A stretch of 64,000 nucleotides of DNA from Chiloscyllium plagiosum. Its lineage: Eukaryota. The stretch is from positions 95,916,354 to 95,980,353 of the forward strand of contig NC_057718.1 of NCBI RefSeq assembly GCF_004010195.1. Reading direction: 5' to 3'. Of the stretch, positions 2,341 through 63,059 are shown piece after piece (the first letter of the stretch is position 1; each line of letters starts with the position of its first letter). A program made the translations under genes and the position numbers. The notes beneath the pieces were generated by a model. The model did no database searches and had not been told where the DNA came from. It saw only the letters and a program-made list of their open reading frames with translations.

Positions 2341-2555
2341 CTGAAAATGTGTTGCTGGAAAAGCGCAGCAGGTCAGGCAGCATCCAAGGAGGAGAATCGA
2401 CGTTTCTGGCATGAGCCCTTCTTCAGGAATCATGAAGAAGGGCTTATGCCCGAAATGTCGATTCTCCTCCTTGGATGCTGCCTGACCTGCTGCGCTTTTC
2501 CAGCAACACATTTTCAGCTCTGATCTCCAGCATCTGCAGTCCTCACTTTCTCCTC
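2341..2555 (+). mobile_element. Penelope-derived fold-back mini-element, family A, with hammerhead cores
   Basis: Inverted repeat centred ~2428; 13-bp TSD catctgatgtgag at 2328-2340 and 2556-2568; minus-strand core CTGAAGA-A-GGGCTCATGCCA-GAAACGTC. Confidence 0.9.
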
Positions 2556-2859
2556 CATCTGATGTGAGTTCATTGGCTGAGTTCCTAAATATTGGTCAAA
2601 TATATATTTCTTTTTGAAATGTGTAAAGATAACTCAGAGCATCCTCAATTTTCAAACAGGATGTGGCATTGCTGGTAAGATTTATTGCCTCCTTCCTAAT
2701 TTCTCAAAGGGCTGTTAAGTCAAGCACATTGCTATCGATCTCGAGTCACATGGTGGTGAGTAGATTTCTTTTGTTAAAGGGCATTAGGGAACCAGATGGG
2801 TATGTACAGCAGCCCCCTTTAAGCCTGCTCTCTATTCCAGATGTTATAAAGTCATGCCC

Positions 2860-3410
2860 AGCAACAAACCATTGGCCCCAACGCGCCCATGCTGACCTGG
2901 TTTCCTGAAGTGAATTAGTCTCGTTTGCCTGTGTTTGGCCCATTATCGCTTTAAATCTTTCCTATCCATGGACCTGTCCAAATGTCTTTGAAATATTACC
3001 ATTGTACGCACTTCTATTACTTCCTCTGGCAGTTCATTCCATATAGGCGCCACCCTCCATGTGAAAAAGATGCCCCTCAGGTCCCTTTTAAATCTTTTCC
3101 CCTCTCGCCTTAAACCTATACCTCTAGTTTTGGCCTCCCCTACCCTTGGGAAAAGACCTTGCCTGTTCCCTTTACCTATGCCCCTCATGATTGTATAAAC
3201 CTCTATAAAGTCACCCCACAGTCTCCTACGCTCCAGAGAAAAAAGTCCTAGCCTATCCAGCCTCTCATTATAACTCAAACATTCCAGTCTCATTGACATC
3301 CTTGTAAATCTTCTTTGCACCCTTTCCAGTTTAATAACATCCTTCCGGTAGAAAGCTGACCAGAATTGTATGCGGTAGTCCAAATGTGTCCATTACCAAT
3401 GTCTTGTACA
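2860..3410 (-). mobile_element. CR1 LINE 3' fragment (RT C-terminus)
   Basis: ORF 2943-3383: QFWSAFYRKDVIKLERVQRRFTRM...LGLFSLERRRLWGD...WNELPEEV. Confidence 0.92.
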
Positions 3411-3527
3411 GCACATTAGTTCACATTTTGGTGAACTCGAATATCCTCCATTGTGAGATTTCAAACTCAAATGCCCAGACTTCAGCCTCGGGTTCTGGAT
3501 TGCTCAATCAGTGATGTTACCATTACA

Positions 3528-3885
3528 GGCAGGTGATGGCATTGTGGTATTATCGCTAGACTTTTAATCCAGAGACCCAGGTGATGTTTTGTGGACCCAG
3601 GTTTGAATCCTATCATGGCAGATGGTGGAATTTGAGTGCAAATAAAAATCTGGAATTAAGAATATAATGATGACCATAAACCCATTGCTGATTGTCGGAA
3701 AAATCCATCTGGTTCACTAATTTCCTTTAGGGAAGAAAATTGCCATCCTTACCTGGTCTGGCCTACATGTGACTCCAGACCCACAGCAATATGGTTCACT
3801 CTTAACTGCCCTCTGGGAAATTAGGAATGGGCTTTAAGTGTTGGCCTAGCCAGAAATGCCCACATCCTGTAAATGAACAATGAAT
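3528..3885 (+). mobile_element. tRNA-derived SINE, family B
   Basis: A-box-like gtggtatt, B-box-like ggtttgaatcc, body ccatctggttcactaa...cctacatgtgactccagacccacagcaat and LINE-type tail. Confidence 0.85.
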
Positions 3886-5555
3886 GCTGCCATTTTCTTC
3901 CAATGTCCTGCTATTATTTATCACCATCAAGGTATCTGACCACACCTGACTGACAACATTGGTGTTTTTCTTTTAAGTCAAATTGCCAATTAAAATATCC
4001 TTTGTGGTTCAGTGTGTGCAATTTGATCTTCTTTGGTTGAATCCTGGTCTGCATCTGAGTCTTTAGCGTTCCACAACATCAATACTGTTTGTGGTCTTGG
4101 GAATGTCTCTCCCCTCCAATGAATTTGGCGGGATGGAGAACGTATGTTTCAGACATGCTGCTGGTCTCCTGCTGTGTAACTTTGGGTGAATGATAGGGCT
4201 GTTGGGGGGGAATTTACCTCAGTGGTTGCCTTGTGTGATTATAACTCCAGCTTGTAGTGACTGGGATCAAACCTGAACATTGGCTTCATGAGTAAACAAT
4301 TTCTGAAGCCAATAACCAAAAATATTCAAAGTCCAAGTGCACTGCTCCACTTACTGGGAAATGTTACTGTCTGGATTTGGCAAGCTGGTAATCATTCAGG
4401 TTATCCACTTATGACCAACAGCAACTTGGAATGATGGTGTTGGTAAACATTCCCAGGCAATTTGTGATAATGTAGGAAAGTATTAAAAGTTCCTTGCGTA
4501 ACTGTAATACCTTCTCTGCTTTTTAATACTTGCTTAAAATATCAATATTCTATAAGCTTTATCTAGATATAGGTTTTACTGAATAAATATTTGAGCCTCT
4601 CAGATAAGCTATCAGCTAACTGTGACCTCAGTGGCCATATGCCAATGTTCGGCTAGATGGGTGGAACCTGCAGAGCACAGGGACTGCTGCTTTGCCATCC
4701 TGCTGTCATGTGCAGCCTGACATGGGCACTGTATAAAATGAACTCAAAAGTCTGGCCTAAGCTAGTCTCAAGATATGAAGAACCCAGATTGGCCGTGGGA
4801 ACAGCGTTGGAGACATCAGTCCAAAGGAGATGGTGTTTTCCTGAGAGGAATCCAAAGAATGTGGAGATTAGACTAATTGACCAGGAGGAACCACGAGGAA
4901 GAGATCTTCAGAAGACTTTCTGAATAAAGCAAATGGAAGGCTTACCCAAAGTGAAGCAAGATAGAGCATGCTCCAAACAGACAATATATCCATGCCAACC
5001 AAGATGTCTTTGGCTTTCTGAAGGCCGTTGATGGTGTTGAAGTAACTGGAACAAGTAATTGAACTTGTAGAAGATGGCTTTCCACATGTACAGAACAGCC
5101 TTTGGTCTCCATTTGTAGCAGCGACCATCTTGGAAGTGGAAGTCAACGTTGCAATTGGTATGCCGATGCCTATTGCCATGGAGAGGTTGTGTGTGTGTGC
5201 AGCTTAGAGGGAATGTGATAGTGATGCCACTTTCCACGACTGACAGTGTTAATGGAGGAACACTCTGGGTGTCTGTGGAGGATGTGAACTTGCAGCTTCA
5301 GCGTTCACAATGATCTTTCAACTGGCAGCAAGTGTGTGTCCGATGTGATTGGTCAAAATGACAGCATTCAAGAAACTAAAGTGGAAGGAAAATACTTCAG
5401 CAATATAGAAGCATGAAATTAATGTTCTGCTTTTGTATGTGAGCCCAGAAAGTTCTCTGCCTTCAACTAATGACCTAGACACAGTGTTAGCAATAGCAGC
5501 AGTTGATGAAATTTGGTTTGTCTTGTCTGTTCGTCTGGAATATTTTGCAGTATCT

Positions 5556-5890
5556 GGGGCGGCACGGTGGCTCAGTGGTTAGCACTGCTGCCTCACAGCA
5601 CCAGGGACCTGGGTTTGATCGCACCCTCGGGTGACTGTGTGGGGTTTGCACATTCCCCCCGTGTCTGCATGGGTTTCCTTCGGGTGCTCTGGTTTCCTCC
5701 ACCAGTCCAAAGATTAGGTTAGGTGAATTGGCCATACTAAATTGCTCCATTGAGTTCAGGGATGTGTAGGTAAGGTGCTTTACATTTATTCCTGACTAGG
5801 GGAATGGGTCTGGGTGGGTTAGTCTTCGGAGGGTGGGTGTGAACTTGTTGGGCTGAAGGACCTGTTTCCACACTGTAGGGATTCTATTCT
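5556..5890 (+). mobile_element. HE1-type V-SINE
   Basis: ggcggcacggtggctcagtggttagcactgctgcctcacagc tRNA head, V-domain ggtttgcacattc...ggtttcctcc, CR1-derived tail. Confidence 0.93.
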
Positions 5891-9062: not shown

Positions 9063-9719
9063 ATTATCATCCAAATACTAAGCACTTGCTGATTTTCAAA
9101 TGGCTACAGTCAGGAATCCATAAACATGGGGATGGGGCAAGATGGGCTTTGTTCTAAGAGCATAAGAACTAGGAGCAGGAGTAGGCCATGGCCCCTCGAG
9201 TCTGCTCTGCCATTCAATAAGATTATGGCTGATCTTTTCATGGACTCAGCTCCACTTACCCGCCTTCTCACTATAACCGTTCAGGAATGAAAAGAATTTG
9301 TGGGGTAGGGGAGGCTTAAAATTCACTTATAGAGCTCAGAGATGAAGGAATGTTTTTACTAGCCCAAATTGAAAGCTTAGAAAAAATATGAATTTAATGT
9401 TCTGGGTCTCCAGGCACCTTTTTCCATCATCTGAGAACACCATGGTTCTCTCTGAGAGGTTAAAATTGCACTGGCTCCCACCAGTGTCAGCGCAGCTCCA
9501 TTGACATATTGAAAGCTGAACCCTGTTGTATGAGGTGATGCCATTTGGATTCATCAGGAAGCCAGCTTTGGATCTCGGAGCAGTAAGGTCTAACAAAAGA
9601 ACAAAGAGCACAGAAAATATACAGCCCAGGAACAGGCCCTTCGGCCCTCCAAGCCTGAGCCGATCCAAATGTACTGTCTCAACCTGTCGGTCAATTCCTA
9701 AGCATCTGTATCTCTCTGC

Positions 9720-12700
9720 TGCCCAACTACTCATGCATCTGTCCAGACGCATCTTAAATGAATGTACCGTGCCTGCCTCTACCACCTCTGCTGGCAACGC
9801 GTTCCAAATGCCCACCACCCTCTGTGTGAAGTACTTGCTGCGTATATCCCCCTTAAACTTTCCACCTCTCACCTTGAAAGCGTGACCTCTCGTTATTGAA
9901 TCCTTCACCCTGGGAAAAAGCTTGTCTCTATCCACCCGGTCTATACCCTTCATGATTTTCTAAACCTCAATCAGGTCCCCCCTCAATCTCCTTTTTCCTA
10001 ATGAAAATAAATCTAACCTACTCAACCTCTCTTCATAGCTCGCACCTTCCATACCAGGCAACATCCTCGTAAACCTTCTCTGCAACNNNNNNNNNNNNNN
10101 NNNNNNNNNNNNNNNNNNNNNNNNNNNNNNNNNNNNNNNNNNNNNNNNNNNNNNNNNNNNNNNNNNNNNNNNNNNNNNNNNNNNNNNNNNNNNNNNNNNN
10201 NNNNNNNNNNNNNNNNNNNNNNNNNNNNNNNNNNNNNNNNNNNNNNNNNNNNNNNNNNNNNNNNNNNNNNNNNNNNNNNNNNNNNNNNNNNNNNNNNNNN
10301 NNNNNNNNNNNNNNNNNNNNNNNNNNNNNNNNNNNNNNNNNNNNNNNNNNNNNNNNNNNNNNNNNNNNNNNNNNNNNNNNNNNNNNNNNNNNNNNNNNNN
10401 NNNNNNNNNNNNNNNNNNNNNNNNNNNNNNNNNNNNNNNNNNNNNNNNNNNNNNNNNNNNNNNNNNNNNNNNNNNNNNNNNNNNNNNNNNNNNNNNNNNN
10501 NNNNNNNNNNNNNNNNNNNNNNNNNNNNNNNNNNNNNNNNNNNNNNNNNNNNNNNNNNNNNNNNNNNNNNNNNNNNNNNNNNNNNNNNNNNNNNNNNNNN
10601 NNNNNNNNNNNNNNNNNNNNNNNNNNNNNNNNNNNNNNNNNNNNNNNNNNNNNNNNNNNNNNNNNNNNNNNNNNNNNNNNNNNNNNNNNNNNNNNNNNNN
10701 NNNNNNNNNNNNNNNNNNNNNNNNNNNNNNNNNNNNNNNNNNNNNNNNNNNNNNNNNNNNNNNNNNNNNNNNNNNNNNNNNNNNNNNNNNNNNNNNNNNN
10801 NNNNNNNNNNNNNNNNNNNNNNNNNNNNNNNNNNNNNNNNNNNNNNNNNNNNNNNNNNNNNNNNNNNNNNNNNNNNNNNNNNNNNNNNNNNNNNNNNNNN
10901 NNNNNNNNNNNNNNNNNNNNNNNNNNNNNNNNNNNNNNNNNNNNNNNNNNNNNNNNNNNNNNNNNNNNNNNNNNNNNNNNNNNNNNNNNNNNNNNNNNNN
11001 NNNNNNNNNNNNNNNNNNNNNNNNNNNNNNNNNNNNACACCACTGGTCACCTTTCTCCATTTTGAGAAACTCCCTTCAACTACTACTCTCTGTCTCCTGT
11101 TGCTCAACCAGTTCTTTATCCACCTAGCTAGAACACCCTGCACATGTGACTTCACTTTGTCCATTAGTCTACAATGGGGAACCTTATCAAACACCTTACT
11201 AAAGTCCACGTATATGACATCAACAGCCCATCCTTCATCTATCAACTTGGTCACTTCCTCAAAGAACTCTATTAAGTTGGTAAGGCATGATCTCCCCTGC
11301 ACAAAACCATGTTGCCTATCACTGATAAGGCCATTCTTTTCTAAATCTAAATAGATCCTATCCCTCAGTACCTTCTCCAGCAACTTTCCCACCACTGACA
11401 ACAGGCTCACTGGTCTGTAGTTACCTGGAATATCCCTACTACCCTTCTTGTACAGGGGGACAACATGAGCAACCTTCCAGTCTCCTGGGGATTTGTCCAC
11501 CTTAATAACCTCTAGCCTACCCAACACATCTTCCCTACTTATGTCAACGTGATCCAGACTAATCAAACTTCTATCTCTAACCTCAAGATTCATCATGTTC
11601 CTCTTCTCAGTGAACACTGATGCAAAGTAATCATTCAGAATCTCACCCATTCTCTTAGGTTCGACACACGGCATTCCATTGTTATTCTTTAGTGGACCAA
11701 TCCTTTCTCTAGTTACCCACTTGCTTCTTGTATAAGAATAAAGTGCTTTGGGATTCTTCTTAATTCTGCTCGCTAAAGCTATTTCATGACCCCTTTTAGC
11801 CCCCTTGATTCTTCGTTTAAGACTTGTCCGACCCTTCTGATATTCCTCGGGGTCTGTTCTGTTCTTAGTTGCCTGGACCTTATGTATGCTTCCCTTTTCC
11901 TCCTGGCTATTTGTACAATTTCTCCTGTCATCCATGGTTCACGAATCTTGCCTTTCCTATCCTTTGCCTTCAACGGGACGTGCCTATCCTGCACTGCCGT
12001 TAACCTATCTTTGAAAGCCTCCCACATCTCAAATGTGGACTTCCCTTCAAATAGCTGTGTCCAATCCACATTTCCCAGCTCCTGCTTAATTTTGATATAA
12101 TTGGCCTTGGCCCAGTTTAGTACTCTTCCCTGAGGACCGTTCTCTTCTTTATCTACAAGTATTCTAAAATTTACAGAGTTGTGGTCACTGTTCCCAGAGA
12201 AATCCCCCACCACAACTTCTACCAACTGTCCTGGCTCGTTCCCCAGTACCAGGTCCAATATGGCCCCTTTCCTCATCGGACTGTTGACATACTGCTCGAG
12301 AAAACTCTCCTGGACGCTTCTTACAAATTCTACCCCATCCAGACCTCTGACGCTATGTGTATCCCAGTCGATGTTGGGAAAATTAAAATCTCTCATCACC
12401 ACTACCCTATTGCCTCTACATCTTTCTATAATCTATTTACCTATTTGTTCTTCTACCTCACACTCACTGTTGGGAGGCCTGTAATACAGCCCCAACAATG
12501 TAACTGCACCCTTCTTATTTCTCAGCTCCACCCATAATGCCTCACTACCCAAGACCACCATGGTGTGCTCCTTTAGCACAACCATGATATCGTCCCTGAC
12601 CAGCAATGCAACTCCTCCCCCCCCCTTTTTATTTCCCTCCCTGTCCTGTCTGAAGCATCTGTATCCTGGAACATTTAGTTGCCAATCATCACGCCCTTCC

Positions 12701-13900: not shown

Positions 13901-13918
13901 TGTAAGCTTAGCTTTATA

Positions 13919-14232
13919 TGGGTGGCACGGTGGCACAGTGGTTAGCACTGCTGCCTCACAGCGCCAGAGACCCGGGTTCAATTCCCGCCTCGGGCAACTG
14001 GCTGTGTGGCGTTTGCACATTCTCCCCGTGTCTGTGTGGGTTTCCTCCAGGTGCTCCAGTCTCCTCCCACAGTCCAAAAATGTACACATTAGGTGAATTG
14101 GTTGTGCTAAATTGCCCGTAGTGTTAGGTGAAGGGGTAAATGTAGGGGAATGGGTCTGGGTGGGTTGCTCTTCGGAGGGTCGGTGTGGACTTGTTGGGCC
14201 GAAGGACCTGTTTCCACGCTATAAGAAATCTA
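13919..14232 (+). mobile_element. HE1-type V-SINE nested in the CR1 5' UTR
   Basis: Canonical head, V-domain and tail, antisense to the LINE, just upstream of the ORF1 ATG. Confidence 0.93.
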
Positions 14233-15030
14233 ATATGAACTAACTAAAACCAAACAATGCACTTAAATGTATGATAAAGAAAACATAAAAGCCTTACCTT
14301 ACTGAGTCTTTTTCTTCCAGTTAGAGGAGGGGGGTGCTGGAGGGAGATACTAAACATGTAGTATCTCGGGCTTAGCCACTAACCAAATATAAATTAAGCC
14401 CTTACCTTCCCGGCAGCCCTCGCTTCACTCCTCCTTCTCTCCGTGACTCGCTGTAAAAATGGACATTGAGATCTCCTCATTGTCTCAGTAACAGCAGGTT
14501 GATCCTTCCCCAGTCCCTGACTTGAGCGATGGTGAGTCGGTTGGGAAAATGTGGTGAAGTCAGAAAAATTCTCGATGTTGAGGAGAAAAAAAGGTCTGAT
14601 TTCCAAACAGTGTGATGACAGTCTCACTTAATTAGCTTATGTCGTTAGCACATAATCTCACCCAATATATACACAATTCCCAACACAAAAGTGTATGACG
14701 TTTCCAGCTCACTACCTGGTTTCTTAGTTAGCATTCCCCAGTATCTCAGGACACGGCCCATGGGTAGCGACTGCCCTCACACCCAGTTCATGGATAGACA
14801 CACATCAGTTTGACTACATCATCAACACACATTTCCGACACCAGCTATAAAACACCTCACCACTTCATTGCTGCATTTTACAGCCCATTGACAACTTACA
14901 CTGCTGGGCCACTCTCTGGACAGGGACAGGGACTGACCCTATTATTGGAGCAGGCTACATCTCTGGGTTTTTCACTTGTTTTCTTTAGCAGTTTCTCATT
15001 TTGCACCTACTTGGATGCTAACAGCATCCC

Positions 15031-17985
15031 TTTTTTTGAATTCATTTGTGGGACTTGGCTGTCGCTGGCTGGCCAGCATTTATTGCCTGTCCCCTAGTTG
15101 CCCCCTTGAGAAGGTCGGGGGTGAGCTGCCTTCTTGAACTGCTGCAGTCCACCTGCTGTGGGTTGACCCACAATGCCCTTAGGGAGAGAACTCCAGGATT
15201 TTGACCCAATGACTGTGAAGGAACGGTGGTATATTTCCAGGTCAGATTGGTGAGTGGCTTGAAGGGGATCTCGCAGGAGGTGGTGTTCCCAAGTACCTAC
15301 TGCTCTTGTCCTTTCAGGTGGAAATGATCGTGCATTTGGAAGTTGCTGTCTAAGGATCTTTGGTGAATTTCTGCAATACTTTGCACCGGTAGTGAAGGGA
15401 TTGAATGTTTGTAGATGTGGTGCCGATCAAGTGGGTTGCTTTGTCCTGGATGGTGTTAAGCTTCTTGAGCGTTGTTGGAGCTGCACCCATCCAGGCAAGT
15501 GGGGAGTATTCCATCACACGCCTGACTTGTGCCTTGTAGATGGTGAATAGACTTTGGGGTGTCAGGAGGTGAGTTACTCGCCACAGTATCCCTAGTCTCT
15601 AACATGCTGTTGTAGCCACTGTGTTTATATGGTGAGTCCAGTTGAATTTCTGGTCAATGGTAACCCCAAGGATGTTGACAGTGGGGGAATTCAGTGATGG
15701 TAATACCATTGAATGTCAAAGGATAGTGGTTTAGAGTGTCTCTTATTGGTGATGGTCATTGTCTAGCATTTGTGTGGCGTGAATGTTACTCATCACTTGT
15801 CGACCCAAACCTGGATATTGTCTAGATCTTGTTGCATTTGAGCACGGACTGCTTCAATATCTAAGGAGTTGTGAATAGTGCTGAACACTGTGCAATCATT
15901 GGTGAACATCCCCACTTTGACCTTATGACAGAGGAAGGTCGTTGATGAAGCAGCTGAAGATTGTTGGGCCTAAGACACTACCCTGGGGGATTCCTGCAGA
16001 GATGTCCTGGAGCTGAGATGACTGACCCTCCACAACTGCAACCATCTTCCTTTGTGCCAGGTACGACTCTAACCAGTGGAGTGTTTGCCCCTGATACCTA
16101 TTGATTCCAGTTTTGCAGGGCTCCTTAATGCCATACTCCATCAAATGCGGCCTTGGTGTCAAGGGCTGTCACTCTCCCCTCCCCTCTGGAATTCAGCTCT
16201 TCTGTCCATGTTTTGAACGAAGACTGTAATGAGATCAGGAGTCGGGTGACCCTGGCGAAACCGAAACTGGGCATCACTGAGCAGGTTGTTGCTGAGCAGG
16301 TGCTGCTTGGTAGCACTATTGATGATACCTTCCATCACTTCACTGATGATCGAGAGTAGACTGATTGGGCGGTAATTGGCCGGGTAGGGTTTGTCCTGCT
16401 TCTTGTGTACAGGACATACCTGGGCAATTTTCCACATTGTTGGGTAGATGCCAGTGTTGTAACTGTACTGGAAGAGCTTGGCAAGGGGAGTGGCACATTT
16501 GGAGCACGCGTCCTCAGAACTATTGCCGGAATATTATCAGGGCCCATTGCTTTTGCAGAATCCAGTGTTTTTTGATATGACGTGGAGTGAGTTGAATTGC
16601 CTAGAGACTGGTATCTGTAATACTGGGGAGCACTGGAGGAGCCCGAGATGGATCATCCATTCAGAACTTCTGACTGAAGATTGTTGTGCATGTATCAGCC
16701 TTGTCTTTTGTACTGATGTGCTTGTCTCCTCCATCATTGAGGATGGGGATATTTGTAGAGCCCCCTTCCCCAGTGAGTTGTTTAATTGTCGACCATCATT
16801 CATGACTGGATATGGAAGTTCTGCAGAGCTTAGATCTGATTCATTGGTTGTGGGATCGCCTAGTTCTGTCTATCACTTGCTGTTTATACCATTTGGCATG
16901 CAAATTGCCCTGTTTGGTAGCTTCACCAGGTTGACACCTCATTTTTAGGTATGCCTAATGCTGCTGCTGGCATGCCCTCTTGCACTCTCCATTGAACCCG
17001 GGTTGAACCCCTGGCTTGATGGTAATGGTTCAGTGGGGGATATGCCAGACCATGGGGTTGTAGATTGTGCTGAAGTACAGTTCTGCTGCTGTTGATGGCC
17101 CACAGTACCTCATGGATGCCCCGTCTTGAGGTGCTAGATAGTGCCACGCAACACGATGGAGGTTATTCTCAATGTGAAGGCAGGACTTTGTCTCCACAAG
17201 GACAGTGCAGTGGTCGCTTATACTGATACTGTCTTGGACAGATCCTTCTGCAGCCGGCAGATTAGTAATGATGAGGTCAAGTATGTTTTCTCCTCTTGTT
17301 TGTTCCTTCACCACCTGCTGCAGACCCAGTCTAGCCGTTTATATCCTTTAGGACCCGACCAGTTCGATCAGTAATGCTGCTGCCAAGCCACTCTTCGTCA
17401 GCCGAAAGAGGGAGATACGTGGTAACCAGCAAGAGGTTTTCTTGCCCATGTTTAATCTGAAGCCATGAGACATCATGGGATCCAGAGTTGATGTCAAGGA
17501 CTCTCAGGGCAACTCCCTCCCAACTGTATCCCACTGTGCCGCCACCTCTGCTGGGTCTGTCCTGCCGGTGGGACAGATCATATCCAGGAATGGTAATGGT
17601 GGTGTCTGAGGTGTTATCTGTAAAGTATGACTCCATAAGAATGATTATGTCAGGCTGTTTCTTGACTAGTCTGTGAGACAGTCTCCTAAGTTTGGGCACT
17701 GGCCCCCAAATGTTAGTAAGGAGGACTTTGCATGGCCAGGAGGGCTGTTTGTGTTTTTGCTGTTGCCTTTTCCAGTTCCAATGTCGATGCCAGGTGGTCC
17801 ATTCAGTTTCATTCCTTTGTTATGACTTTCTAGCAGTTAATACAATTGACTGGATTGCTAGGCCATTTCAGAGGGCATTTGAGAGTCAACCACATTGCTG
17901 TGGCTCTGGAGTCATATCTAGGCCAGACCAGGTAAGGATGGCAGATTTCTTCTCTATAGGACTTTAGTGAATCAGATGGGTTTTA
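15031..17985 (-). mobile_element. ~2.9-kb single-ORF (APE-RT) non-LTR retrotransposon, CR1 group; disrupted
   Basis: LSHRLVKKQPDIIILMES, PGYDLSHRQDRPSRGGGT, TRGENILDLIITN, SDH, MGPDNIPAIVL, WKIAQVCPVHKKQDK..PANYRPISLLS, QFRFRQGH, GIPQGSVLGPTIFSCFINDL; A-rich 3' end at 15031. Confidence 0.92.
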
Positions 17986-19217: not shown

Positions 19218-19418
19218 CACTAATCACATTTTCCAGCACTTGGCCCATAGCTTTGAACGCTTTGGTGATATTGGGAGACGAAAACTTAAATGAAAGTTGG
19301 AGAAAGCTCATTATTGATGGCAGTGCAAAGATTAGAGGATCCAGCAAGATTTGGGGTGCCCTTAGATTGCCAGGCTACCCTCACTCACTCTGTGAAGCTC
19401 AACAAGTCTGATCCTCCA

Positions 19419-19509
19419 GTGTTTAGATCAGAGTGGTGCTGGAAAAGCACAGCAGGTCAGGCAGCATCCATTCGGGCAAAAGCCCTTCATCTGCAGTTCT
19501 CACTTTTGC
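19419..19509. mobile_element. Internally deleted family A Penelope mini-element
   Basis: Left arm fused to the 3' terminus catctgcagttctcactttt; 16-bp TSD caagtctgatcctcca at 19403-19418 and 19510-19525. Confidence 0.85.
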
Positions 19510-19689
19510 CAAGTCTGATCCTCCATCCTCATCTGAATTGGAGACACACGATGGAAATGGAAACTGCATGGCACCATACCTGGAGTAGGGGAAACAAATG
19601 GTTTTGTTTTTCTAACAGTGTAAGCTCTACCTCTGAGTGCTGTTTAGACCATTACATGGCAATTACATTAATCAATTACAGATTATTGT

Positions 19690-21187: not shown

Positions 21188-21710
21188 TTGTACATCCCAG
21201 CAAGGAAAATCCAAAACTAGAGGACATAGGCTTAGGGTGATTGGGAAAAGTCGTAAAAGGGACCGAAGGAACAACTTTATCACGCAGAGGGTGGTGCGTG
21301 TATGGAATGAGCTGCCAGAGGAAGCGGTGGAGGCTGGTACAGTTACAACATTTAAATGGCATCTGGATGGGTATATGAATAGGAGAGGTTTGGAGTTGTA
21401 CATCCCAGCAAGGAAAACTAGAGGACATAGGCTTAGGGTGATTGGGAAAAGTCATAAAAGGGACCGAAGGAACAACTTTTTCATGCAGAGGGTGGTGCGT
21501 GTATGGAATGAGCTGCCAGAGGAAGTGGTGGAGGCTGGTACAGTTACAACATTTAAATGGCATCTGGATGGGTATATGAATAGGAGAGGTTTGGAGGGAT
21601 ATGGGCCAAGTCCTGGCAAATGGGACTAGATTGATTTATGATATCTGGTCAACATGGATAAGTTGGACCAAAGGGTCTGTTTCCATGCGGTACATCTCTA
21701 TGACTCTAAG
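21188..21710 (+). mobile_element. CR1 3' fragment with ~205-bp tandem duplication
   Basis: 21188-21395 repeated at 21396-21596 (KTRGHRLRV...WNELPEE twice in ORF 21147-21629). Confidence 0.92.
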
Positions 21711-26960: not shown

Positions 26961-27180
26961 TACAGGCTGTCTCCAAGTTACAAGTGGTTCCATTCCTGAC
27001 TACATTTGTAAGTTGGCTTGCACGCAAATCTGAACACGGTACAGTAGAGTATAATATACCTATTTGTAAGTACAATAAGACCTCTGAGTGTTGCATCCTT
27101 AAAATTAACAGTAATATGGGATCTCAATCATAAGGATGAGCATTTGTAAATCAGACATCCGTTAAGTTGGGAATCACCTG
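26961..27180. mobile_element. Old Tc1/mariner (Tigger-like) MITE
   Basis: ta-caggctgtctccaagttac ... gttaagttgggaatcacctg degenerate TIRs. Confidence 0.5.
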
Positions 27181-27289
27181 CCCAAGTTGCTTGTTCAACC
27201 ACGCACTAAGAAATTCAATTGAAGTTAAAGGGGCAGATAAATTTAGACATTTAAATTTTAATTTAAAAAAACAGGCACTAGAAACAACC

Positions 27290-30140: not shown

Positions 30141-30153
30141 CTCCTTATATGGC

Positions 30154-42434: not shown

Positions 42435-42526
42435 CTGCTCCTCGGATGCTGCTGGAACTGCTGTGCTTTTGCAGCACCACTCTAATCTAGACTCTGGTTT
42501 CCAGCATCTTCTGTCCTTGATTTTAC
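42435..42526 (+). mobile_element. Family A Penelope mini-element 3' end
   Basis: 11-bp TSD agagaaaatca at 42424-42434 and 42527-42537. Confidence 0.8.
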
Positions 42527-42844
42527 AGAGAAAATCAGAAGTAAAAGCTTCAACAAATCAATTTGTTTCCTGAGGCACCTTGTTGTGTTATACTGCGATA
42601 GCCTGTAGAAAATTCAGCTGTGTTCATTGCAAGCTGCAAAATTGATTGTAAATAGAGGGCTACTTTATTCATGTACATGGCAAGTAAAGTGGGACATTGT
42701 AGATCTTTCACCCTTTACTATAAAATTTTTGATTATATATGAATTTGCAGTAAATTCCTTTAATTGTATGGTAGAGTGTCCAATATTAACATTTGCCCAA
42801 GCTGAACTGAACTGATTTGAATTGAATTAGCAAAAAAAAACGCA

Positions 42845-43050
42845 TAACTGTGGATGTTGTAAATCAGGGACAAAAGTAGAAATTGCTGGAAACGTTCAGC
42901 AGGTCTGGCAGCATCTGTGGAGAGAAATCAGAGTCAATGTTTCAGGTCGACTGAGGGAGTGTTTTGAGGAAGAGTAATTTGACCTGAAACGTTAACTCTG
43001 ATTTCTCTCCACAGGTGCTGAGCTTTTCCAGCAATTTCGATTTTTGTCTT
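42845..43050. mobile_element. Old Penelope-derived fold-back element (family C)
   Basis: tgtggagagaaatcagagtcaatgtttcaggtc ... gacctgaaacgttaactctgatttctctccaca inverted arms with decayed hammerhead core. Confidence 0.8.
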
Positions 43051-44400: not shown

Positions 44401-44862
44401 AGTATCCCAGGTGCAATTTATCCATCGCTGCTCCATCAGTTCTTGTGCCTCCACCCTTGAGTCACATTCAGAATGGGGATGGAATGGTTTCCTATTGTCT
44501 CTGGGTGCTCCATTGAAATAGCACTGAAGAATTTCAGTACCACCCATTCTGTAGCAGTCCACTTCATTGGCACTTCATCCAAGAACATAAAGATTCATAT
44601 GCACCATAACTGGTCTCATGTGGCTATGGTTTTTATTTGCCAGGAAGACAATGGCACAGTGACAATCTAACTATATTAGTAATCCCCAGGTCCAAGCTAA
44701 TCAAGTGGGGTCACAGGTTCAAGTCTCACCTTTTATACTTTAAATTAATAATTTCAAAAATCAGGAATTGAAAACTAGCCTCAGTAATGGTGACCATGAA
44801 ATAAACAGCAAAGTTAGGCAGCGTTACTACTTTTCCATCTGTTAACCACAACAGTTAGATAT

Positions 44863-45165
44863 GGGCGGCATGGTGGCACAGTGGTTAGCACTGCTGCCTC
44901 ATAGCACCAGAGACCTGTGTTCAATTCCCGGCTCAGGCGACTCTCTGTGTGGAGTTTGCGCATTCTCCCTGTTTCTGCGTTGGTTTCCTCCGAGTGCTCC
45001 GGTTTCCTCCCACAGTCCAAAGATGTGCAGGTTGGGGGAATTGGCCATGCTAAATTGCCCGTAGTGTTAGGTGAAGGGGTAAATGTAGGGGAATGGGTCT
45101 GGGTGGGTTGTGCTTCGGAGGGTCGGTGTGGACTTGTAGGGCCGAAGGGCCTGTTTCCACACTGT
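44863..45165 (+). mobile_element. HE1-type V-SINE nested in a family B SINE (~44650-45260)
   Basis: Canonical HE1; family B head lies upstream and its body resumes at 45166. Confidence 0.9.
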
Positions 45166-45629
45166 AAGCCTAGCCTGCATGTGACTCCAGACCCACAGCA
45201 ACGTGGGTGGCTCTTAACCGTCCTCTGATATGGCCCTGGCAAGTCACTCAAGGGCATTTACTGATCAAATGTAGGAGTAGATCATTTATCCTTTGAACCT
45301 GCTTAGCCATTCAATAAAATCATTCCTTTTCCATACCCTTATCCAGCTTTCACCCCTACCTTTTAGACTTATATTTATCTCCTTGAAAGCTTTCAATGTT
45401 TTGGCCTCAGCCACTTTCTGTGGTGGAGAATTCCACAGGCTTACTACTCTCTGGGTGAAGACATTTCTCCTCATCCCTGTCCTAAATAGCCCACCCTGTA
45501 CCCATAAAACGTGTCACATGCTTCTGAAATCTCTGGATATCAGGAACATCCTTCCCAAGTTTACCCTGTGTATTTTTTTGAGAACTTTACAGGTTTAGTT
45601 CAGATTCACCCCCTCATCCTTCTTAGAAT

Positions 45630-46250
45630 GGGCAGCCATTACCTGCTGTATCCTGATTTGTGGCATCTGTTGCTCCTGAGTGGTCTCCTCTACATTGGAG
45701 AGACTGAATGCAGACTCAGGGACCAGTTCAGGGAACATCTATGATCCGCACGTTCCAACCAACCCCACCTTCCAGCTGCTAACCGTTTCAACTCCCCGTT
45801 CCACTCCCCCAACAACATGTCCATTCTGGGCCTCCTCCATCATCAACACAAGGCCACACTCAAGCTTGGAGAAAAACACCTCATCTTCCGCCTCGAAGGC
45901 TTGCGACCATATGGCCTCAACATAGAATTCACCAGCTTTCACATCTCCCCAACCCCCACCTCATCCCAGGCCTAGCCCTCCCTATCCATCCAACCCCCTT
46001 TACCTAGCCTTTCCTTTCTAACTACCCGCTTCACCCTTCCCACTGACCAATCACAGCCACCTCCTGCCTGCATCGACCTATCACCATCCCAGCTACCTAT
46101 TCCCCCAGCTCCACTCCCCACCCTCTGTTTATTTGGCAGCTGCCCCCTCCCCCTCCCTCAGTCCTGATGAAAGGTTCCGACCTGAAATGTTGACTCCCGT
46201 TCTCCTCTGATGCTGCTTGATCTGCTGTGCTGTTTCCAGCTCCACACTTT
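45630..46250 (+). mobile_element. Penelope-like element 3' fragment: GIY-YIG endonuclease remnant, 3' UTR and hammerhead
   Basis: GLLYIGETECRLRDQFREHL*...PAANRFNSPFHSPNNMSILGLLHH..KATLKLGEKHLIFRLEGLRPYGLNIEF; C-rich UTR; tail gatgctgcttgatctgctgtgctgtttccagc shared with family A. Confidence 0.9.
46160..46195 (+). ncRNA. Minimal type I hammerhead ribozyme motif in the Penelope 3' UTR
   Basis: AGUC-CUGAUGA-A-AGGU-UCCG-ACCU-GAAA-UGUU-GACU; stem I AGUC/GACU, stem II AGGU/ACCU; stem III probably CpG-decayed from CGUC or CGUU. Confidence 0.75.
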
Positions 46251-46287
46251 ATCAGCCATTACTGACCTGGTCAATTACTCCCACATG

Positions 46288-46614: not shown

Positions 46615-47700
46615 AATAGAAAACTAGCCATTTGGATACATGAATGACTCAAAGGTAGAAGACAGAGGATGGTGGTGGAGGATTGTTTTTCAGACTGAAG
46701 TCCTGTGACCAATGGAGTTCCACAAGGATTGGTGCTGGGTCCACTACTTTTCATCATTTATATAAATGATTTGGATGTGAGCATAAGAGGTATATTTAGT
46801 AAGTTTGTAGATAACATCAAAAGTGGAGGTGTAGTGGACAGCAAAGAAGGTTACCTCAGATTACAATGGGATCTTGATCAGATGGGCCAATGGACTGAGA
46901 GGTGTCAAATGGAGTTTAATTTAGATAAATGCGAGGTGCTGCATTTTGGGAAAGCAAATCTTAGCAAGACTTAATGGTAAGGTCCTAGGGAGTGTTGCTG
47001 AACAAAGAGACCTTGGAGTGCAGGTTCATAGCTCCTTGAAAGTAGAGTCGCAGGTAGATAGGATAGTGAAGAAGGTGTTTGGTATGCTTTCCTTTATTGG
47101 TCAAGTATTGAATAGAGGAGTTGGGAGGTCATGTTGTGGCTGTAAAGGACATTGGTTAGGCCACTGTTGGAAAATTGTGTGCAATTCTGGTCTTCTTCCT
47201 AGTGAAAGGATGTTGTGAAACTTGGAAGGGTTGAGAAAAGATTTACAAGGAGGTTTTGAGCTATAGGGAGAGGCTGAATAGGTTGGGGCAGTTTTCCCTG
47301 GAATATCAGAGGCTGAGGGGTGACCTTATAGAGGTTAACAAAATCATGAGGGGCATGGATAGGATAAATAGACAACGTCTCTTCTCTGGTGTGGGGAGTC
47401 CAGAACCATAGAGCAAAGATTTAGGGTGGGAGGGGAAAAATATAGAAGTGGCCTAAGGGGCAACTTTTTCATGCAGAGGGTGGTACATGTATGGAATGAG
47501 CTCCCTGAGGAAGTGGTTGAAGTTAATACAAATGCAACATTTAAAAGGCATTTGGATGGGTATATGAATAGGAAGGGTTTGGAGGGATATCGGCTGGGTG
47601 CTGGCAGGTGGGACTAGATTGGGTTGGGATATCTGGTCGGCATCTGGTTGGACCGAAGGGTCTGTTTCCATGCTGTACATCTCTATGACTCTATGACTCG
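46615..47700 (+). mobile_element. 5'-truncated CR1 LINE (RT C-terminal half and 3' UTR)
   Basis: TNGVPQGLVLGPLLFIIYINDLD...SKFVDN.K, WQMEFN-like QMEFNLDKCEVLHFG, QRDLGVQVHSSLKV, FFMQRVVHVWNELPEE; (ctatgact)n tail. Confidence 0.95.
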
Positions 47701-49066: not shown

Positions 49067-49661
49067 TGCTGTGCTGCTCAGATCCGAAATATCAATAAAC
49101 CAGACAGTCTTCATCCTGTCTGCCTTTGTCCTTTTGATTATACGTGAACACTTTCTACAAACTGTGACTTGCCTCCACACACCAAATTTTGGAACTCAGA
49201 ATGTCACCAGCTCCACATCAAATGCAAAACACTGGACGTATTTGGAAGCTGAAGTTAAGCAGAAAGCGCTCAGCAGTTCTGGCAGCGTCTGTGGGGAGAG
49301 AGAAATAGTTAATGCTGAGAGAAACAGCCAGTGATTGAACCAGAATTGGAAGGAGTTAGGTACTTCTCAGCTCACAAGTATTTCGGGTAAAATGGGCTAA
49401 GGTAAGGAGAGATGAGGGGAAGAAATAAATCGAGGAAAATCTCTTCTCGGATGGAGAGCAGGAGAGATTAAATGACAAAAAGGGGCGATGGTGTTACTAA
49501 AGCAAAAGTTGGTGGTAATGAAACTATCAAGGAAACATAAATCTACAGGAGGTCTAACAAATATCAGCAAAGCCATTAGGAATATGATGGACTGTATGAA
49601 GAGATGCAACATCTCACTGGAGTGACCTCGGTCTAATTTTAAATTATTCTCGACTCTTTAA

Positions 49662-52885: not shown

Positions 52886-53013
52886 GTCACTGCAGACTCA
52901 GCCATCTGGAGGAATGTCTAGTACTGTCAGGATAAAGGTCCATCTCCCTCTCCATTCCGTTAATGTAAGTGCCAATATGCCACCCTCGCCTGAGTTTTGC
53001 TACTGTACCCACC

Positions 53014-53282
53014 TTCTAGATTAAAGTGGTGCTGGAAAAGCACAGCAGTTCAGGCAGCATCCGAGGAGCAGGAGAGTCGACGTTTCGGGCAAAAGCCCTT
53101 CATCAGGAATAGAATGCTTTACTCCTGATGAAGGGCTTTTGCCCGAAATGTTGATTTTCCTGCTCCTCGGAGCCCGAAATGTTGATTTTCCTGCTCCTCG
53201 GATGCTGCCTGAACTGCTGTGCTTTTCCAGCACCATTCTATTCTAGAACCTGGTTTCCAGCATCTGCAGTCATTGTTTTTAC
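53014..53282 (+). mobile_element. Penelope-derived fold-back mini-element, family A
   Basis: Inverted arms around 53110-53122; 14-bp TSD ctactgtacccacc at 53000-53013 and 53283-53296; ~31-bp internal tandem duplication at 53141-53201. Confidence 0.92.
53077..53107 (-). ncRNA. Minimal type I hammerhead ribozyme core (intact)
   Basis: Minus strand c-CUGAUGA-A-GGGC-UUUU-GCCC-GAAA-CGUC-ga. Confidence 0.82.
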
Positions 53283-53743
53283 CTACTGTACCCACCACCT
53301 ATTGCTGAGAATCCCTGGCACCACCAATCCTGCACGCACTCTGTGCTGCCTCCTCACTCACTCTGGAACCACCTCTCCACGTGCACCAAAAGTAACTGCT
53401 GTGCCAAACTCCCTTCCCCTTACATCTCTCATAATAGTTGCTGCCCTCTCTCTCTCAGTCCAGGAGGGGAGTAGTCCTGAGTAAGACAGATAGACTGGGC
53501 AGATGGTGTACTGCCTGACATTCAGTTCCTCACCCGTTATGAGGAGAGTATCTTGACTCCAATAGCCCAGAGTGGACTGACTGACCATTTCAAAGCCCCT
53601 GGACTGGTATCGGAGGCTGCCCTTGATTTCCTGTGTCAGGACCACCTGAGCAAAGCCATTCGCCCTTGACCTAACTGAGGCTTGCTGATGACCATGACAA
53701 CCTTCCTGACTTGGCAAGACAGGAGTATGATGAGCCAAGAGCA

Positions 53744-53939
53744 TGCTGCTGGAAAAGCACAGCAGGTCAGGCAACATCCGAGAAGCAGGAGAGTCAATGT
53801 TTCAGGCAAAAGTCCTTCATCAAGGCTTATGCCCGAAACGTTGATTCTCCTGCTCCTCGGATGCTGCCTGACCTGCTGTGCTTTTCCAGCACCACATCCT
53901 CGACTTTGATCTCCAGCATCTGCAGTTCTCATTTTCTCC
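53744..53939 (+). mobile_element. Family A fold-back mini-element with centre deleted
   Basis: gctggaaaagcacagcaggtcaggca...tgcctgacctgctgtgcttttccagc arms; junction ccttcatca|aggcttatgcccgaaa. Confidence 0.88.
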
Positions 53940-56719: not shown

Positions 56720-56996
56720 TACAAAATTAAAAATCACACAACACCAGGTTATAGTCCAACAAGTTTAATTGGAAGCACTAGCTTTCGGAACGCTGCTCCT
56801 ACATCAGGTGGTTGTCGAGTATAAGATTGTAAGACGCGGAATTTATAGCAAAAGTTTTCAGTGTGATCTACCACCTGATGAAGGAGCAGCATTCCGAAAG
56901 CTAGTGCTTCCAATTAAACCTGGTGGACTAAAACCCTGGTGTTGTGGGATTTTTAAATTTGTACGCTCCAACCCAACACTGGCGTCTCCAAATCAT
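56720..56996 (+). mobile_element. Penelope-derived fold-back mini-element, family B
   Basis: Arms aaaaatcacacaacaccagg...catcaggtgg / ccacctgatga...cctggtgttgtgggattttt; imperfect flanking repeat aacaactgatt / aacaaactggtt. Confidence 0.88.
56872..56906 (+). ncRNA. Minimal type I hammerhead ribozyme core (family B, intact)
   Basis: CAC-CUGAUGA-A-GGAG-CAGCA-UUCC-GAAA-GCUA-GUG; stem I CAC/GUG, palindromic AGCU stem III, CUA cleavage triplet. Confidence 0.82.
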
Positions 56997-57762: not shown

Positions 57763-57960
57763 ACAGTAATATATTACCTTAGGAGAGGATTAGCACAATA
57801 GTGAATTACCCCAATAACACTGGACCTGAATAGAAGCACTCAAACGAGAATGATGTCCTAGTATTGTTCCCTGCAAAGATGTCCTTTTCATTTCTGAAAC
57901 TTGCTTACAAGAACTTAAGAACCAGGAGCAGGTGTAGGTAATCCAGTCCACCGAGCCTGC

Positions 57961-58293
57961 TCCATCATTTGATATGATCATGGCTAATCTTGCCTTAGCC
58001 TCAACTCCACTCTCCTGTCCACGCCCTATAACCCTCCGACCCAATACAAAAATCTCTCTCCTCTTAGATTAATTCAATGTCACAGCAACCACCGCACTCT
58101 TCTCCTGTTCCCTAGATGCTGCCTGACCTGCTGCGCTTTTCCAGCAACACATTTCCATCATTTGATATGATCATGGCTAATCTTGCCTTCGCCTCAACTC
58201 CACTCTCCTGTCCACGCCCTATAACCCTCCGACCCAATACAAAAATCTCTCTCCTCTTAGATTAATTCAATGTCACAGCAACCACCGCACTCT
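57961..58293 (+). repeat. 140-bp direct duplication enclosing a 53-bp family A Penelope fragment
   Basis: 57961-58100 matches 58154-58293 (1 mismatch); insert 58101-58153 tctcctgttccctagatgctgcctgacctgctgcgcttttccagcaacaca. Confidence 0.92.
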
Positions 58294-59915: not shown

Positions 59916-60148
59916 CTCTAGCTTTCGGAGCACTGCTCCTTCATCAGGTGGTAGTGGAGAACATGATGTAAGGCACCGAATTCATAGCAAAAGTTTACAG
60001 TGTACATCACACTGTAAGCTTTTGCTATAAATTCTGCGTCTTACAAACTTATACTCCAGAACCACCTGATGAAGGACCAGCGCTCCAAAAGCTAGTGTTT
60101 CCAAATAAACCTGGACTATAACCTGGTATTGTGTGATTTTTAACTTTG
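59916..60148 (+). mobile_element. Family B fold-back mini-element
   Basis: Inverted repeat centred ~60005 (atagcaaaagtttacagtgt / acactgtaagcttttgctat); intact minus-strand core at 59916-59950; plus-strand core has GAAA changed to AAAA. Confidence 0.88.
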
Positions 60149-60617: not shown

Positions 60618-60755
60618 GTTGAACTTCCTGATGAAGTGCTTTTGCCCGAAATGTTGATTCTCCTGCTCCTCGGATGCTGCCTGACCAGCTGTGTTTTTCT
60701 AGCATCACACTCTTTGACTCTGATCTCCAGCATCTGCAGTCCTCACTTTCTCCAA
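60618..60755 (+). mobile_element. Single-arm family A Penelope mini-element
   Basis: cctgatgaagtgcttttgcccgaaatgttga...; 10-bp TSD atttgtctca at 60608-60617 and 60756-60765. Confidence 0.88.
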
Positions 60756-61210: not shown

Positions 61211-61599
61211 TGTGGTGATTATCCTCTCATGATGGAACTCCCCAAATGGTTTTACTCTCTAATAGTGTGCAGTGTTACTGTGTAATAGTTATTAAAAAAA
61301 TTTTCATGGGATGTGAACATCATGGGTAAAGTCAGCATTTGTTGCCCATCCCTAACTACCATTGGAATGTGCAGCTTACAAGACCATTTGAGACAGTAGG
61401 AGAGAGTCAACCCCATTGATATAACTCTGGGGTCACCGGTCCTTCCCCAAAGGTCATTTGTGAACCAGATGGATTTTTTACAACTGTCTATGATTATTTC
61501 ATTATAACCATTCCAGAGGTTCTCCAGTCTAGATTAATTACTACCTAAATCCCACCAACTGGTGAGGTGGGATTTGAACCTATGTCTCTAGAGTACTAG

Positions 61600-61803
61600 G
61601 AGAAAGTGAGGACTGCAGATGCTGGAGATCAGAGCTGAAAAATGTGTTGCTGGAAAAGCGCAGCAAGTCAGGCATCCAAGGAGTAGGAGAATCGACGCTT
61701 CGGGCATAAGCCCTGAAGAAGGGCTTATGCCCGAAACGTTGATTCTCCTGCTCCTTGGATGCTGCCTGACCTGCTGCGCTTTTCCAGCAACACATTTTTC
61801 AGT
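61600..61803 (-). mobile_element. Family A fold-back mini-element inserted in a family B SINE (~61300-61840)
   Basis: 13-bp TSD tctagagtactag at 61587-61599 and 61804-61816; plus-strand core CTGAAGA-A-GGGCTTATGCCC-GAAACGTT at 61713-61740. Confidence 0.92.
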
Positions 61804-61857
61804 TCTAGAGTACTAGTCCAGTACCATTACCCATCCATCATCCAGTGTTACACTGTT

Positions 61858-62121
61858 ACCTCACAGCGCCAGGGACCCGGGTTCGATTCTGGCCTCGGGC
61901 GACTGTCTGTGTGGAGTTTTCACATTCTCCCCATGTCTGCATGGGTCTCCTCCCACAGGCCAGGTGAATTGGCCATGCTAAATTGCCCATACCCATAGTG
62001 TTAGGTGCATTAGTCAGGGGTAAATATAGGGTAGGGGAATGGCTCCAGGTGGGTTACACTTTGGAGGGTCAGTGTGGACTTGCTGGGAGTAAGGGCCTGT
62101 TTCCATACTGCAGAGAATCTA
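61858..62121 (+). mobile_element. 5'-truncated HE1 V-SINE
   Basis: cctcacagcgccagggacccgggttcgatt...V-domain...tail. Confidence 0.9.
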
Positions 62122-62859
62122 ACCAATACTTCTACAAACCGTTGGCCTTTCCTTTTGGGTGCCAGTTTTCTTCATGTTTCATGAAATATTTCTATGGCTA
62201 ACATTTCATCACTAACATGATTATCACCTTAGCTCCACTGATATGCCATTAAGAAAGATGAAAGAACAGAATTATCTATACAACACATTTTAAACTCAGA
62301 GTAAAAGTCAGCCCATGATGTTCTCATCTTGTTGAGATGATACAATTGGAACAAAATGCAATTCAGTCTTGACTTCATATCTTTCTGAGTGAATTCAGCT
62401 TTACTTAAGGATTTGATTTCCGGTTCAGTGGTGCTTCCAGGTTTGAGATGCCATTGCCAACAAAATCCAAGGGTGCGCATCATGTTAGGAAAAACAACAA
62501 CAACTTATAAAGCCCTTTTAGCATATTAAACACCCCAAAAGGTATGCAGGGGTATTAGGAAACAAGCCATCATAACATAATGTGATACTGGACCAGTTGG
62601 CCAATAGTTTGGTCAAAGAAAATAAAAGCCATGATCTGCGGATGCTGGAACTCTGAAATAAAAGGGGAAAATGCTGTAGAAACTCATCAGATCATGCAGC
62701 ATCAGTTAACATTTCGATCCAATATAACCCTTCTTGTGAACTCTGAAGTTTGGTCAAGGAATTAGGTTCAATGAGTGGCTCAAACGTGAAAAGTGAGGTG
62801 AGAGGTGCAAGGAGGATTTTCCAGAGCTTGGAGACATGGCAGCTTTATACAATCCCCAG

Positions 62860-63059
62860 TGGGGTGCTGGAAAAGCACAGCAGGTCAGGCAGCATCCAAG
62901 GAGGAGGAAAATTGACATTTTGGGTAAGAGCCCTTCATCAGGAAAGGGCTCAGGGCCAAAACGTCGATTCTCCTGCTCCTCGGATGCTGCCTGGCCTTCT
63001 GTGCTTTTCCAGAACCACACTCACGACTGTATCCAGCATCTGCAATCCTCACTTTCTCC
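62860..63059 (+). mobile_element. Family A fold-back mini-element
   Basis: 12-bp TSD tacaatccccag at 62848-62859 and 63060-63071; inverted arms with truncated centre. Confidence 0.9.

Follow-up and report, generated by a model that had tools for sequence, protein, structure and literature searches.

Short single-armed and mirror-image ends of a Penelope-like element dispersed in a Chiloscyllium plagiosum locus

The locus and its insertions

This analysis concerns a 64,000-nucleotide stretch of the genome of the shark Chiloscyllium plagiosum (NC_057718.1 of assembly GCF_004010195.1, forward-strand positions 95,916,354-95,980,353), called the window below and used for all coordinates, and a group of short repeats dispersed along it that we call family A. 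Related modules occupy 2471 of 63,050 window bases (3.9%). An initial annotation, made from the sequence alone, had listed at least 11 family A elements, and scoring by BLASTN and nhmmer against the copy at 2341-2555 recovers all 11; a twelfth copy at 58100 and a longer relative at 45643 had been missed (Table 1). That they form one family holds insofar as they are homologous and reduce to one module of 85-130 bp, but in the alignment they split into at least three subfamilies, A1, A2 and A3. Likewise, the architecture proposed for complete copies, a full arm facing a shorter inverted one, is present in six of the 11 (2341, 30154, 53014, 53744, 61600 and 62860) but not in the other five: four of these (31609, 60618, 42435 and 36423) consist of a single arm, and the fifth, 19419, reads as a collapsed two-armed remnant, in which a deleted short arm seems to have been fused to the tail at a short shared word. 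The tail sequence reported for the full arm is as had been claimed.

The copies are retrotransposed insertions with target site duplications (TSDs). Exact flanking repeats, of the lengths given in Table 1, are found at 10 of the 11 listed copies as first annotated, whereas only 7 of 300 random spans of similar size reach a repeat of 10 bp; none was found for 53744. The TSD of 31609 lies within an older repeat, and four paralogous copies of that repeat in the window hold the target once, without the insert; a search of the window for paralogous empty sites of the other 10 of the 11 inserts tried found none.

The module is very abundant. Contigs from three DNA runs, each of a different species, and from one RNA run were aligned to the single-arm copy 31609, and 79,458, 73,273 and 105,075 contigs of the three DNA runs aligned on the module, with run X2 under-counted, in keeping with the high copy number first suggested (73,273-105,075 contigs per run carry the module). 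Depth on the module is about 1.5 million-fold that of the flank (47,000 if divided by 31), a ratio we leave unused as a copy number. The absence of an open reading frame was borne out, since none of the 11 stubs holds coding sequence and their longest ATG-initiated frames span 14-71 aa. So was the absence of RNA polymerase III (pol III) boxes: A and B boxes occur in none of the 11 copies on either strand, and a tRNA-derived short interspersed element (SINE) used as control gave one A and one B box.

Some copies carry additional duplications. The 58100 copy sits between the two parts of a 141-bp duplication (57960-58100 and 58153-58293, 2 mismatches), far beyond the usual 10-17 bp TSD. A 31-bp tandem duplication lies in the tailed arm of 53014 (within 53141-53202) and one of about 13 bp in 36423 (36423-36480), both of which possibly reflect slippage or re-priming of the reverse transcriptase (RT).

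Table 1. Family A copies and the related longer element in the window. HHR, hammerhead ribozyme; C3, core position used as offset 0; +n and -n, offsets from C3.
Feature	Positions	Strand	Structure	TSD
Two-armed copy, A1	2341-2555	+	short arm 2341-~2431 (minus), tailed arm ~2432-2555	13 bp (2328-2340 / 2556-2568)
Presumed collapsed two-armed remnant, A2	19419-19509			16 bp (19403-19418 / 19510-19525)
Two-armed copy, A2	30154-30380	-	symmetric centre at ~-8; intact minimal HHR on tailed arm, C3 at 30279 (minus)	15 bp (30139-30153 / 30381-30395)
Single tailed arm, A1	31609-31740	-	5' end 4-6 nt before C3 (31734); intact minimal HHR, predicted cut between 31707 and 31706	17 bp (31592-31608 / 31741-31757)
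Short-end fragment, 58 bp	36423-36480	-	no hammerhead	13 bp
Single tailed arm, A2	42435-42526	+	begins downstream of the hammerhead, so no HHR	11 bp
GIY-YIG frame, broken, C-terminal	45643-45972	+	one in-frame stop (read as X)
5'-truncated Penelope-like element, 610 bp	45643-46252	+	GIY-YIG remnant, pyrimidine-rich spacer, minimal HHR (C3 46164), pseudo-long terminal repeat	likely 10 bp (45633-45642 / 46253-46262)
Two-armed copy, A2	53014-53282	+	intact minimal HHR on short arm, C3 at 53106 (minus)	14 bp (53000-53013 / 53283-53296)
Two-armed copy (53744), A3-like, decayed	53731-53939	+	tailed arm from ~+7, without core	none found
Twelfth copy, A1 fragment, 58 bp	58100-58157	+	no hammerhead
Single tailed arm, A3	60618-60755	+	5' end <=10 nt before C3 (60628); stem II mismatched	10 bp
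Two-armed copy, A1	61600-61803	-	tailed arm (minus) from +7; short arm (plus) with intact minimal HHR, C3 at 61713; 3-nt microhomology at centre	13 bp (61587-61599 / 61804-61816)
Two-armed copy, A3-like, decayed	62860-63059	+	short arm to -3, tailed arm from ~+7	12 bp (62848-62859 / 63060-63071)

Hammerhead motifs and the link to a Penelope-like element

The most informative relative of family A is the 5'-truncated Penelope-like element (PLE) at 45643-46252, in which a GIY-YIG endonuclease (EN) remnant, located by reading upstream of the hammerhead motif at 46164, precedes a minimal hammerhead ribozyme (min-HHR) and a pseudo-long terminal repeat (pLTR). This pLTR is 72-90% like family A over the aligned stretches and stops at the short 3' site (+88), where its likely 10-bp TSD also falls, as expected of a 3' end; a repeat of this length has a probability of about 0.09 of arising by chance over the whole search space. 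The broken frame matches the whale shark RT/GIY-YIG protein P0003 at 58 of 96 aa (60% identity, E 3e-36), although its own Pfam match to GIY-YIG is weak (E 0.16), and it has protein relatives in whale shark and Mobula. P0003 itself matches GIY-YIG above the Pfam cut-off and RVT_1 below it, and both domains are present in four of the five long relatives scanned. Thus, the Penelope origin first proposed is upheld by a related module behind a GIY-YIG remnant together with a minimal hammerhead, and the copies are the pLTR plus tail of a Penelope-like element.

The partner protein likely belongs to the Neptune clade, an assignment that is indirect because the window remnant begins downstream of the RT-EN linker region and the call is made through the linker of its relatives. 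A CX2-5CxxC linker, which marks Neptune and Nematis (Craig 2021, PMC8557442), is present in the relatives P0001, P0003 and P0004, in P0003 as CX4CxxC, and a recent preprint reports only Neptune and Poseidon from vertebrates (Li 2026, 10.64898/2026.07.22.740005). Elsewhere in the window tblastn found no second GIY-YIG remnant. A Pfam scan of the 300 longest of 390 stop-to-stop frames (at least 55 aa) returned RVT_1 and endonuclease pieces of the long interspersed element (LINE) type and weak chance matches, with no GIY-YIG, the 45643 remnant having been missed because the sole frame at 45680 was the wrong one.

Taken together, the window holds what characterizes endonuclease-bearing (EN+) PLEs: a GIY-YIG domain upstream of the pLTR (in the sister copy), a min-HHR, an inverted arm with a tail, and variable TSDs. 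A miniature inverted-repeat transposable element (MITE) with long terminal inverted repeats would also be short, palindromic, TSD-flanked and abundant. We give this reading practically no chance, however, and regard it as refuted, because TSD length is not fixed (10-17 bp), the ends are unequal, only one of them having a tail, single arms have TSDs of their own, and a PLE endonuclease is linked to the module.

The initial annotation had described the family as hammerhead-bearing. The motif, CUGA(U/A)GA, a bulged A, a 4-bp stem II, GAAA and then CG-U-H with no helix III, is present within 3 mismatches in six of the 11 copies (nine arms, with 0 expected by shuffling) but is intact, with core, stem II and ACGU-H, in only four of the 11 (30154, 31609, 53014 and 61600). 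Across the window we count eight strict motifs, distributed over three PLE-like families; each of 20 shuffles gives 0-1. In Rfam, none of the families attains its gathering score in the window, and the 14 matches at E <= 1 include no hammerhead model: 13 are microRNA hairpin models that score below gathering and the remaining one is a tmRNA fragment, all set aside as generic hairpins or chance. The 25-nt hammerhead pattern likewise has 0 matches in metagenome contigs and 0 in viral contigs. The motif resembles the min-HHRs described in metazoan PLEs (Cervera and de la Pena 2014, PMC4209133) in its bulge between positions 9 and 10.1, G10.1-C11.1 pair, palindromic 15.2-16.2 and lack of helix III; it differs in its 4-bp stem II, its weak stem I and the direct abutment of paired motifs, which that study describes mostly as dispersed singles from truncated PLEs, with pairs on opposite strands about 100-700 bp apart; the study is not known to include a shark.

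Predicted folding separates the two forms of the copies. A single arm is predicted to form stem I, stem II and an open core, with a weak stem I (4 pairs with a U-U mismatch) and an ordinary folding energy (z = 0.0). Stem II has a predicted pairing probability of 0.97-1.00 in the single-arm 31609 but of 0.00 in the four two-armed copies folded, and a hairpin transcript would thus bury its own ribozyme. The hammerhead in the stubs is likely a passenger.

Ends, joints and the origin of the mirror arm

Arms of family A end at preferred places. In the window their 3' ends lie at +81 to +92 (short site, 6 ends) or at +123 to +127 (tail site, 4 ends), so that the two sites are about 35-45 nt apart, and the main 5' site lies 4 nt before the core. 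The same positions recur among the loose ends of contigs from the three species, for which six positions per run were examined (1200 more exist): the largest piles among them are at +124 to +126 (1704, 2125 and 2501 contigs), with others at +81 (325, 324 and 383) and at -4 (612 in X2, 583 and 690). A further pile at +89 (541-588 contigs, indel-rich, median about 15 letters) is consistent with subfamily divergence. The -4 pile, present in all three species, sustains the earlier view that 5' ends are non-random. Because the sequences beyond -4 are long (median 255) and agree poorly with one another (consensus agreement 0.33-0.35), most of these ends abut unrelated flank; the faint consensus that remains suggests that longer copies of a family A subfamily exist too. 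A 10-nt upstream motif has no exact match in the window.

Sharp ends invite the reading that the 130-nt single arm is itself a non-autonomous, SINE-like family, with an internal pol II promoter and an RT landing site, mobilized in trans, the palindromes being by-products. The abundance in each DNA run and the existence of at least three subfamilies speak for it, pLTR sequences reportedly suffice for trans-mobilization in Adineta (Arkhipova 2013, PMC3846280), and non-autonomous PLE derivatives have been described (Craig 2021, PMC8557442; Li 2026 preprint). Yet run-off copies from the 5' pLTR of an autonomous mRNA predict identical ends, some -4 ends share upstream sequence, and longer subfamily copies appear to exist. 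The RNA run also looks passive. In this poly(A) single-cell run, of which about 2% was read (12,955,460 records) and which is blind to circular, small or uncapped RNA, 3157 records fall on the module and none on unique flank; both strands are represented and 96% continue into unlike sequence, which fits passive read-through from many loci. For the stretch 27000-36800 a listing of RNA datasets that carry it was empty, which says nothing about expression. On balance we consider a SINE-like family rather unlikely.

Joints between modules bear on whether a hairpin is the mobile unit, as the initial annotation had supposed. Among the 15 of 197 joints examined in the three species there is no dominant head-to-head joint, and none exceeds 5 contigs, a count to be set against the 612 loose ends at -4 in run X2. 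Head-to-tail tandems of the 130-nt unit are represented by 24 (X2), 14 and 14 contigs at the main joint and by 2 RNA reads, a few percent of the -4 ends (24 vs 612 in X2). Each of the three species has tandems of both the 130-nt and the 95-nt unit, which would formally answer to the definition of a retrozyme if both ribozymes are intact; tail-to-tail joints, linking the tail end to the short end on opposite strands, reach 17, 12 and 25 contigs. Both kinds of joint fit what flexible template joining would produce.

A fold-back, retrozyme-like element, which would move as a hairpin or circular RNA after hammerhead processing, could claim the reality of the motif, the tandems and a few head-to-head joints on the predicted cut site. 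It is nevertheless very improbable, and its hairpin form is largely refuted already: the centres vary, even between sister copies; only six of 11 copies are two-armed and four have an intact hammerhead; stem II is predicted unformed in the hairpin; none of the 12 window copies begins at the cut site, and the main 5' end, which mostly abuts unrelated flank, still has the bases that cleavage would take away. Tandems make up only a small share, and insertion in vitro did not require hammerhead cleavage (Frangieh 2024, PMC11167929).

The centres themselves do not support one fixed fold-back point. This had been placed just 5' of the core, and the centres are indeed near the core, but they spread over a zone of about -9 to +7 around C3, with five different centres among the six two-armed copies. 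The sister A1 copies illustrate this, since 2341 and 61600 have different centres and 31609 lacks a second arm. Neither a fold-back master nor a MITE matches five centres in six copies with asymmetric ends and 10-17 bp TSDs. In three of the six (53744, 61600 and 62860) the tailed arm starts inside the ribozyme, without CUGANGA, while the short arm carries extra 5' bases and the core; because core and tail are on different arms, the two arms are not simple copies of each other. The centres of 30154 and 53014 come close to symmetry, and that of 2341 is ambiguous.

Self-priming, in which the first cDNA folds near the hammerhead and copies itself, after which the endonuclease trims one arm and leaves the tail on one side, has been proposed for PLEs (Arkhipova 2013, PMC3846280; Craig 2021, PMC8557442). 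The near-symmetric centres, the private indels that 2341 and 61600 carry on both arms, and a centre shared by 53744 and 61600, readable as the outcome of a 3-bp hairpin at the cDNA end, would suit such a process. It needs additional trimming to place the tail on the core-less arm in three of six copies, however, and the arms of 53014 and 53744 (the latter differing at 10 positions) differ where other copies vary, a weak hint of two templates. Furthermore, in vitro a PLE enzyme has been shown to extend the two target strands after nicking (Frangieh 2024, PMC11167929). Self-priming is therefore possible but unlikely in our estimate, and we favour twin priming over self-priming plus trimming for the second arm.

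We think it probable that family A copies are end-stubs of a PLE whose mirror arm was made at insertion rather than copied from a hairpin master. The variable centres, the lack of a dominant joint among those examined and the predicted burial of the ribozyme make the palindromes likely insertion products and not a propagating fold-back retrozyme. The stubs, the last 85-130 bases of the PLE (min-HHR, pLTR and optional tail), would likely be written by its own RT/GIY-YIG protein, which would nick both target strands 10-17 bp apart. Reverse transcription would start at one of two internal RNA sites, yielding the short end or the tail end, and the RT would likely run off the RNA 5' end just upstream of the hammerhead, leaving a cDNA of about 90-130 nt. 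Extension of one nick would give a single arm; extension of both, one per start site, would allow the cDNA 3' ends to join head to head, often via a few bases of microhomology, into a palindrome with a one-sided tail. Longer truncated copies such as 45643-46252 would arise when a longer transcript is primed at its downstream pLTR.

This scheme fits findings on the Anolis Poseidon element PAc, for which two internal RT start sites bracket a tail of 30-40 nt in vitro, the enzyme cuts and extends both target strands, and HHR mutants still insert (Frangieh 2024, PMC11167929). As in PAc, the pLTR of family A opens with the hammerhead, and the two 3' piles correspond to a tail bracketed by RT starts; unlike PAc, the partner here is likely a Neptune protein, to judge from the CX4CxxC linker of P0003. 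The PAc work is not known to account for inverted copies or for 5' run-off stubs.

Several observations weigh against the scheme. The in vitro data come from a Poseidon element, and their transfer to Neptune would be an extrapolation. The copy with the GIY-YIG remnant belongs to a sister subfamily, 13-18 substitutions from family A over 69 columns; no full-length element with the exact family A pLTR was seen, and no PLE open reading frame is among the 300 of 390 window frames scanned. There is no pile-up of beginnings or ends in the RNA run, and an RNA start at -4 is suggested by DNA ends only. A common fold-back joint could have escaped, given that the contigs are unitigs, which represent palindromes badly, that 15 of 197 joints were seen and that X2 is under-counted. 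The centre common to 53744 and 61600, identical apart from one base, shows some recurrence, although a 3-nt microhomology explains it. Private indels common to both arms of 2341 (a 3-bp deletion) and 61600 fit a self-primed fold-back equally well, and 2341 is the one copy in which an arm has its partner as sole nearest neighbour, in a test that is uninformative for old copies. Finally, in the comparison for an orthologous empty site, contigs of related species stop inside the host repeat of 31609.

A more specific version, in which a dimeric PLE protein builds the palindromes by priming at both target ends on two RNAs, a minority of those RNAs having been self-cut by the min-HHR in the germ line, strikes us as quite unlikely. 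It draws on the head-to-head joint with the most support among those examined, a microhomology-free junction of the -4 end with +28, the base that directly follows the predicted cut (31706 to 31738: 5, 2 and 0 contigs in the three runs; 31706 to 31739: 1, 2 and 2), and on several other joints at +29 to +31. The counts are tiny, however, +28 is not among the loose-end piles examined, and none of the 12 window copies starts there, the 58100 copy starting near +30. The stem I word is also present at both joined places, and joints nearer the centre may be under-detected. If this reading were true, shark genomes, with so many copies, would offer a first view of PLE hammerhead activity in vivo and would settle the origin of inverted pLTRs; Frangieh 2024 (PMC11167929) detected no reads at the HHR cut site.

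Relation to known elements and other repeats

The literature describes an inverted 5'-truncated copy that bears a tail on one of its ends as a typical form of PLEs (Arkhipova 2013, PMC3846280; Craig 2021, PMC8557442; Goubert guide, PMC8969392). Family A shares with the published EN+ PLE unit a head-to-head, shorter truncated arm, a one-sided tail (published as 30-40 bp, about 35-45 nt here), variable TSDs, 5' truncation and an HHR in the pLTR. It differs in having only the pLTR module between the TSDs, in the tight clustering of its 5' ends and in its very great abundance; the TSDs are 10-17 bp, compared with cases of 8-10 bp in Adineta (Arkhipova 2013, PMC3846280). Family A is thus not a new class of element but a minimal form of the PLE insertion unit already published, a mostly ordinary example of a described pattern.

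Non-LTR retrozymes form head-to-tail tandem arrays with an HHR per unit and circular RNA, and have been reported in one chondrichthyan genome (PMC7761336; 10.64898/2026.07.22.740005). Like them, family A is non-coding, has a type I HHR and is related to pLTRs, and retrozymes are thought to be mobilized by PLEs; unlike them, its copies are dispersed monomers or head-to-head pairs, with none of the 12 window copies head-to-tail and tandems a small minority. A search of the literature, mostly open papers and with Repbase and Dfam outside its range, returned no description of this shark family, and an expansion of PLEs is noted in a whale shark genome preprint.

The combination of abundance and sharp ends makes two matters countable: the origin of inverted pLTRs, and in vivo cutting by PLE min-HHRs, whose role was called a mystery in a 2020 review (PMC7761336). 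The palindromes, if transcribed, are predicted to form 75-100 bp of near-perfect double-stranded RNA.

Other repeats share the window. A more distant, second PLE-end family occupies 2241-2311, 33314-33431, 42838-43034 (two-armed, decayed), 62627-62735 and 49261-49296. None of the three of these that were tested has a clean TSD; over families B and C as a whole the count is none in five stretches (best 8-9 bp, mostly with a mismatch). A third PLE-like family, at about 56725-56990 and at 59917-59947, has a different min-HHR (GAAAGCUA); its copy near 56.8 kb is head-to-head, with one arm that, in contrast to family A, reaches at least about 55 nt upstream of the core. Coding pieces of LINE type, all decayed (RVT_1, endonuclease), lie at 9339-12432 (minus; broken by a 950-base N gap at about 10086-11035), 15926-17819 (minus) and 46699-46971. 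SINEs with tRNA heads are abundant (13916-14234, with pol III boxes present; 44859-45176; about 7 more), and LINE 3' ends are found at 21213-21675 and about 8 further places, the 21213 copy containing a 201-bp internal tandem repeat.

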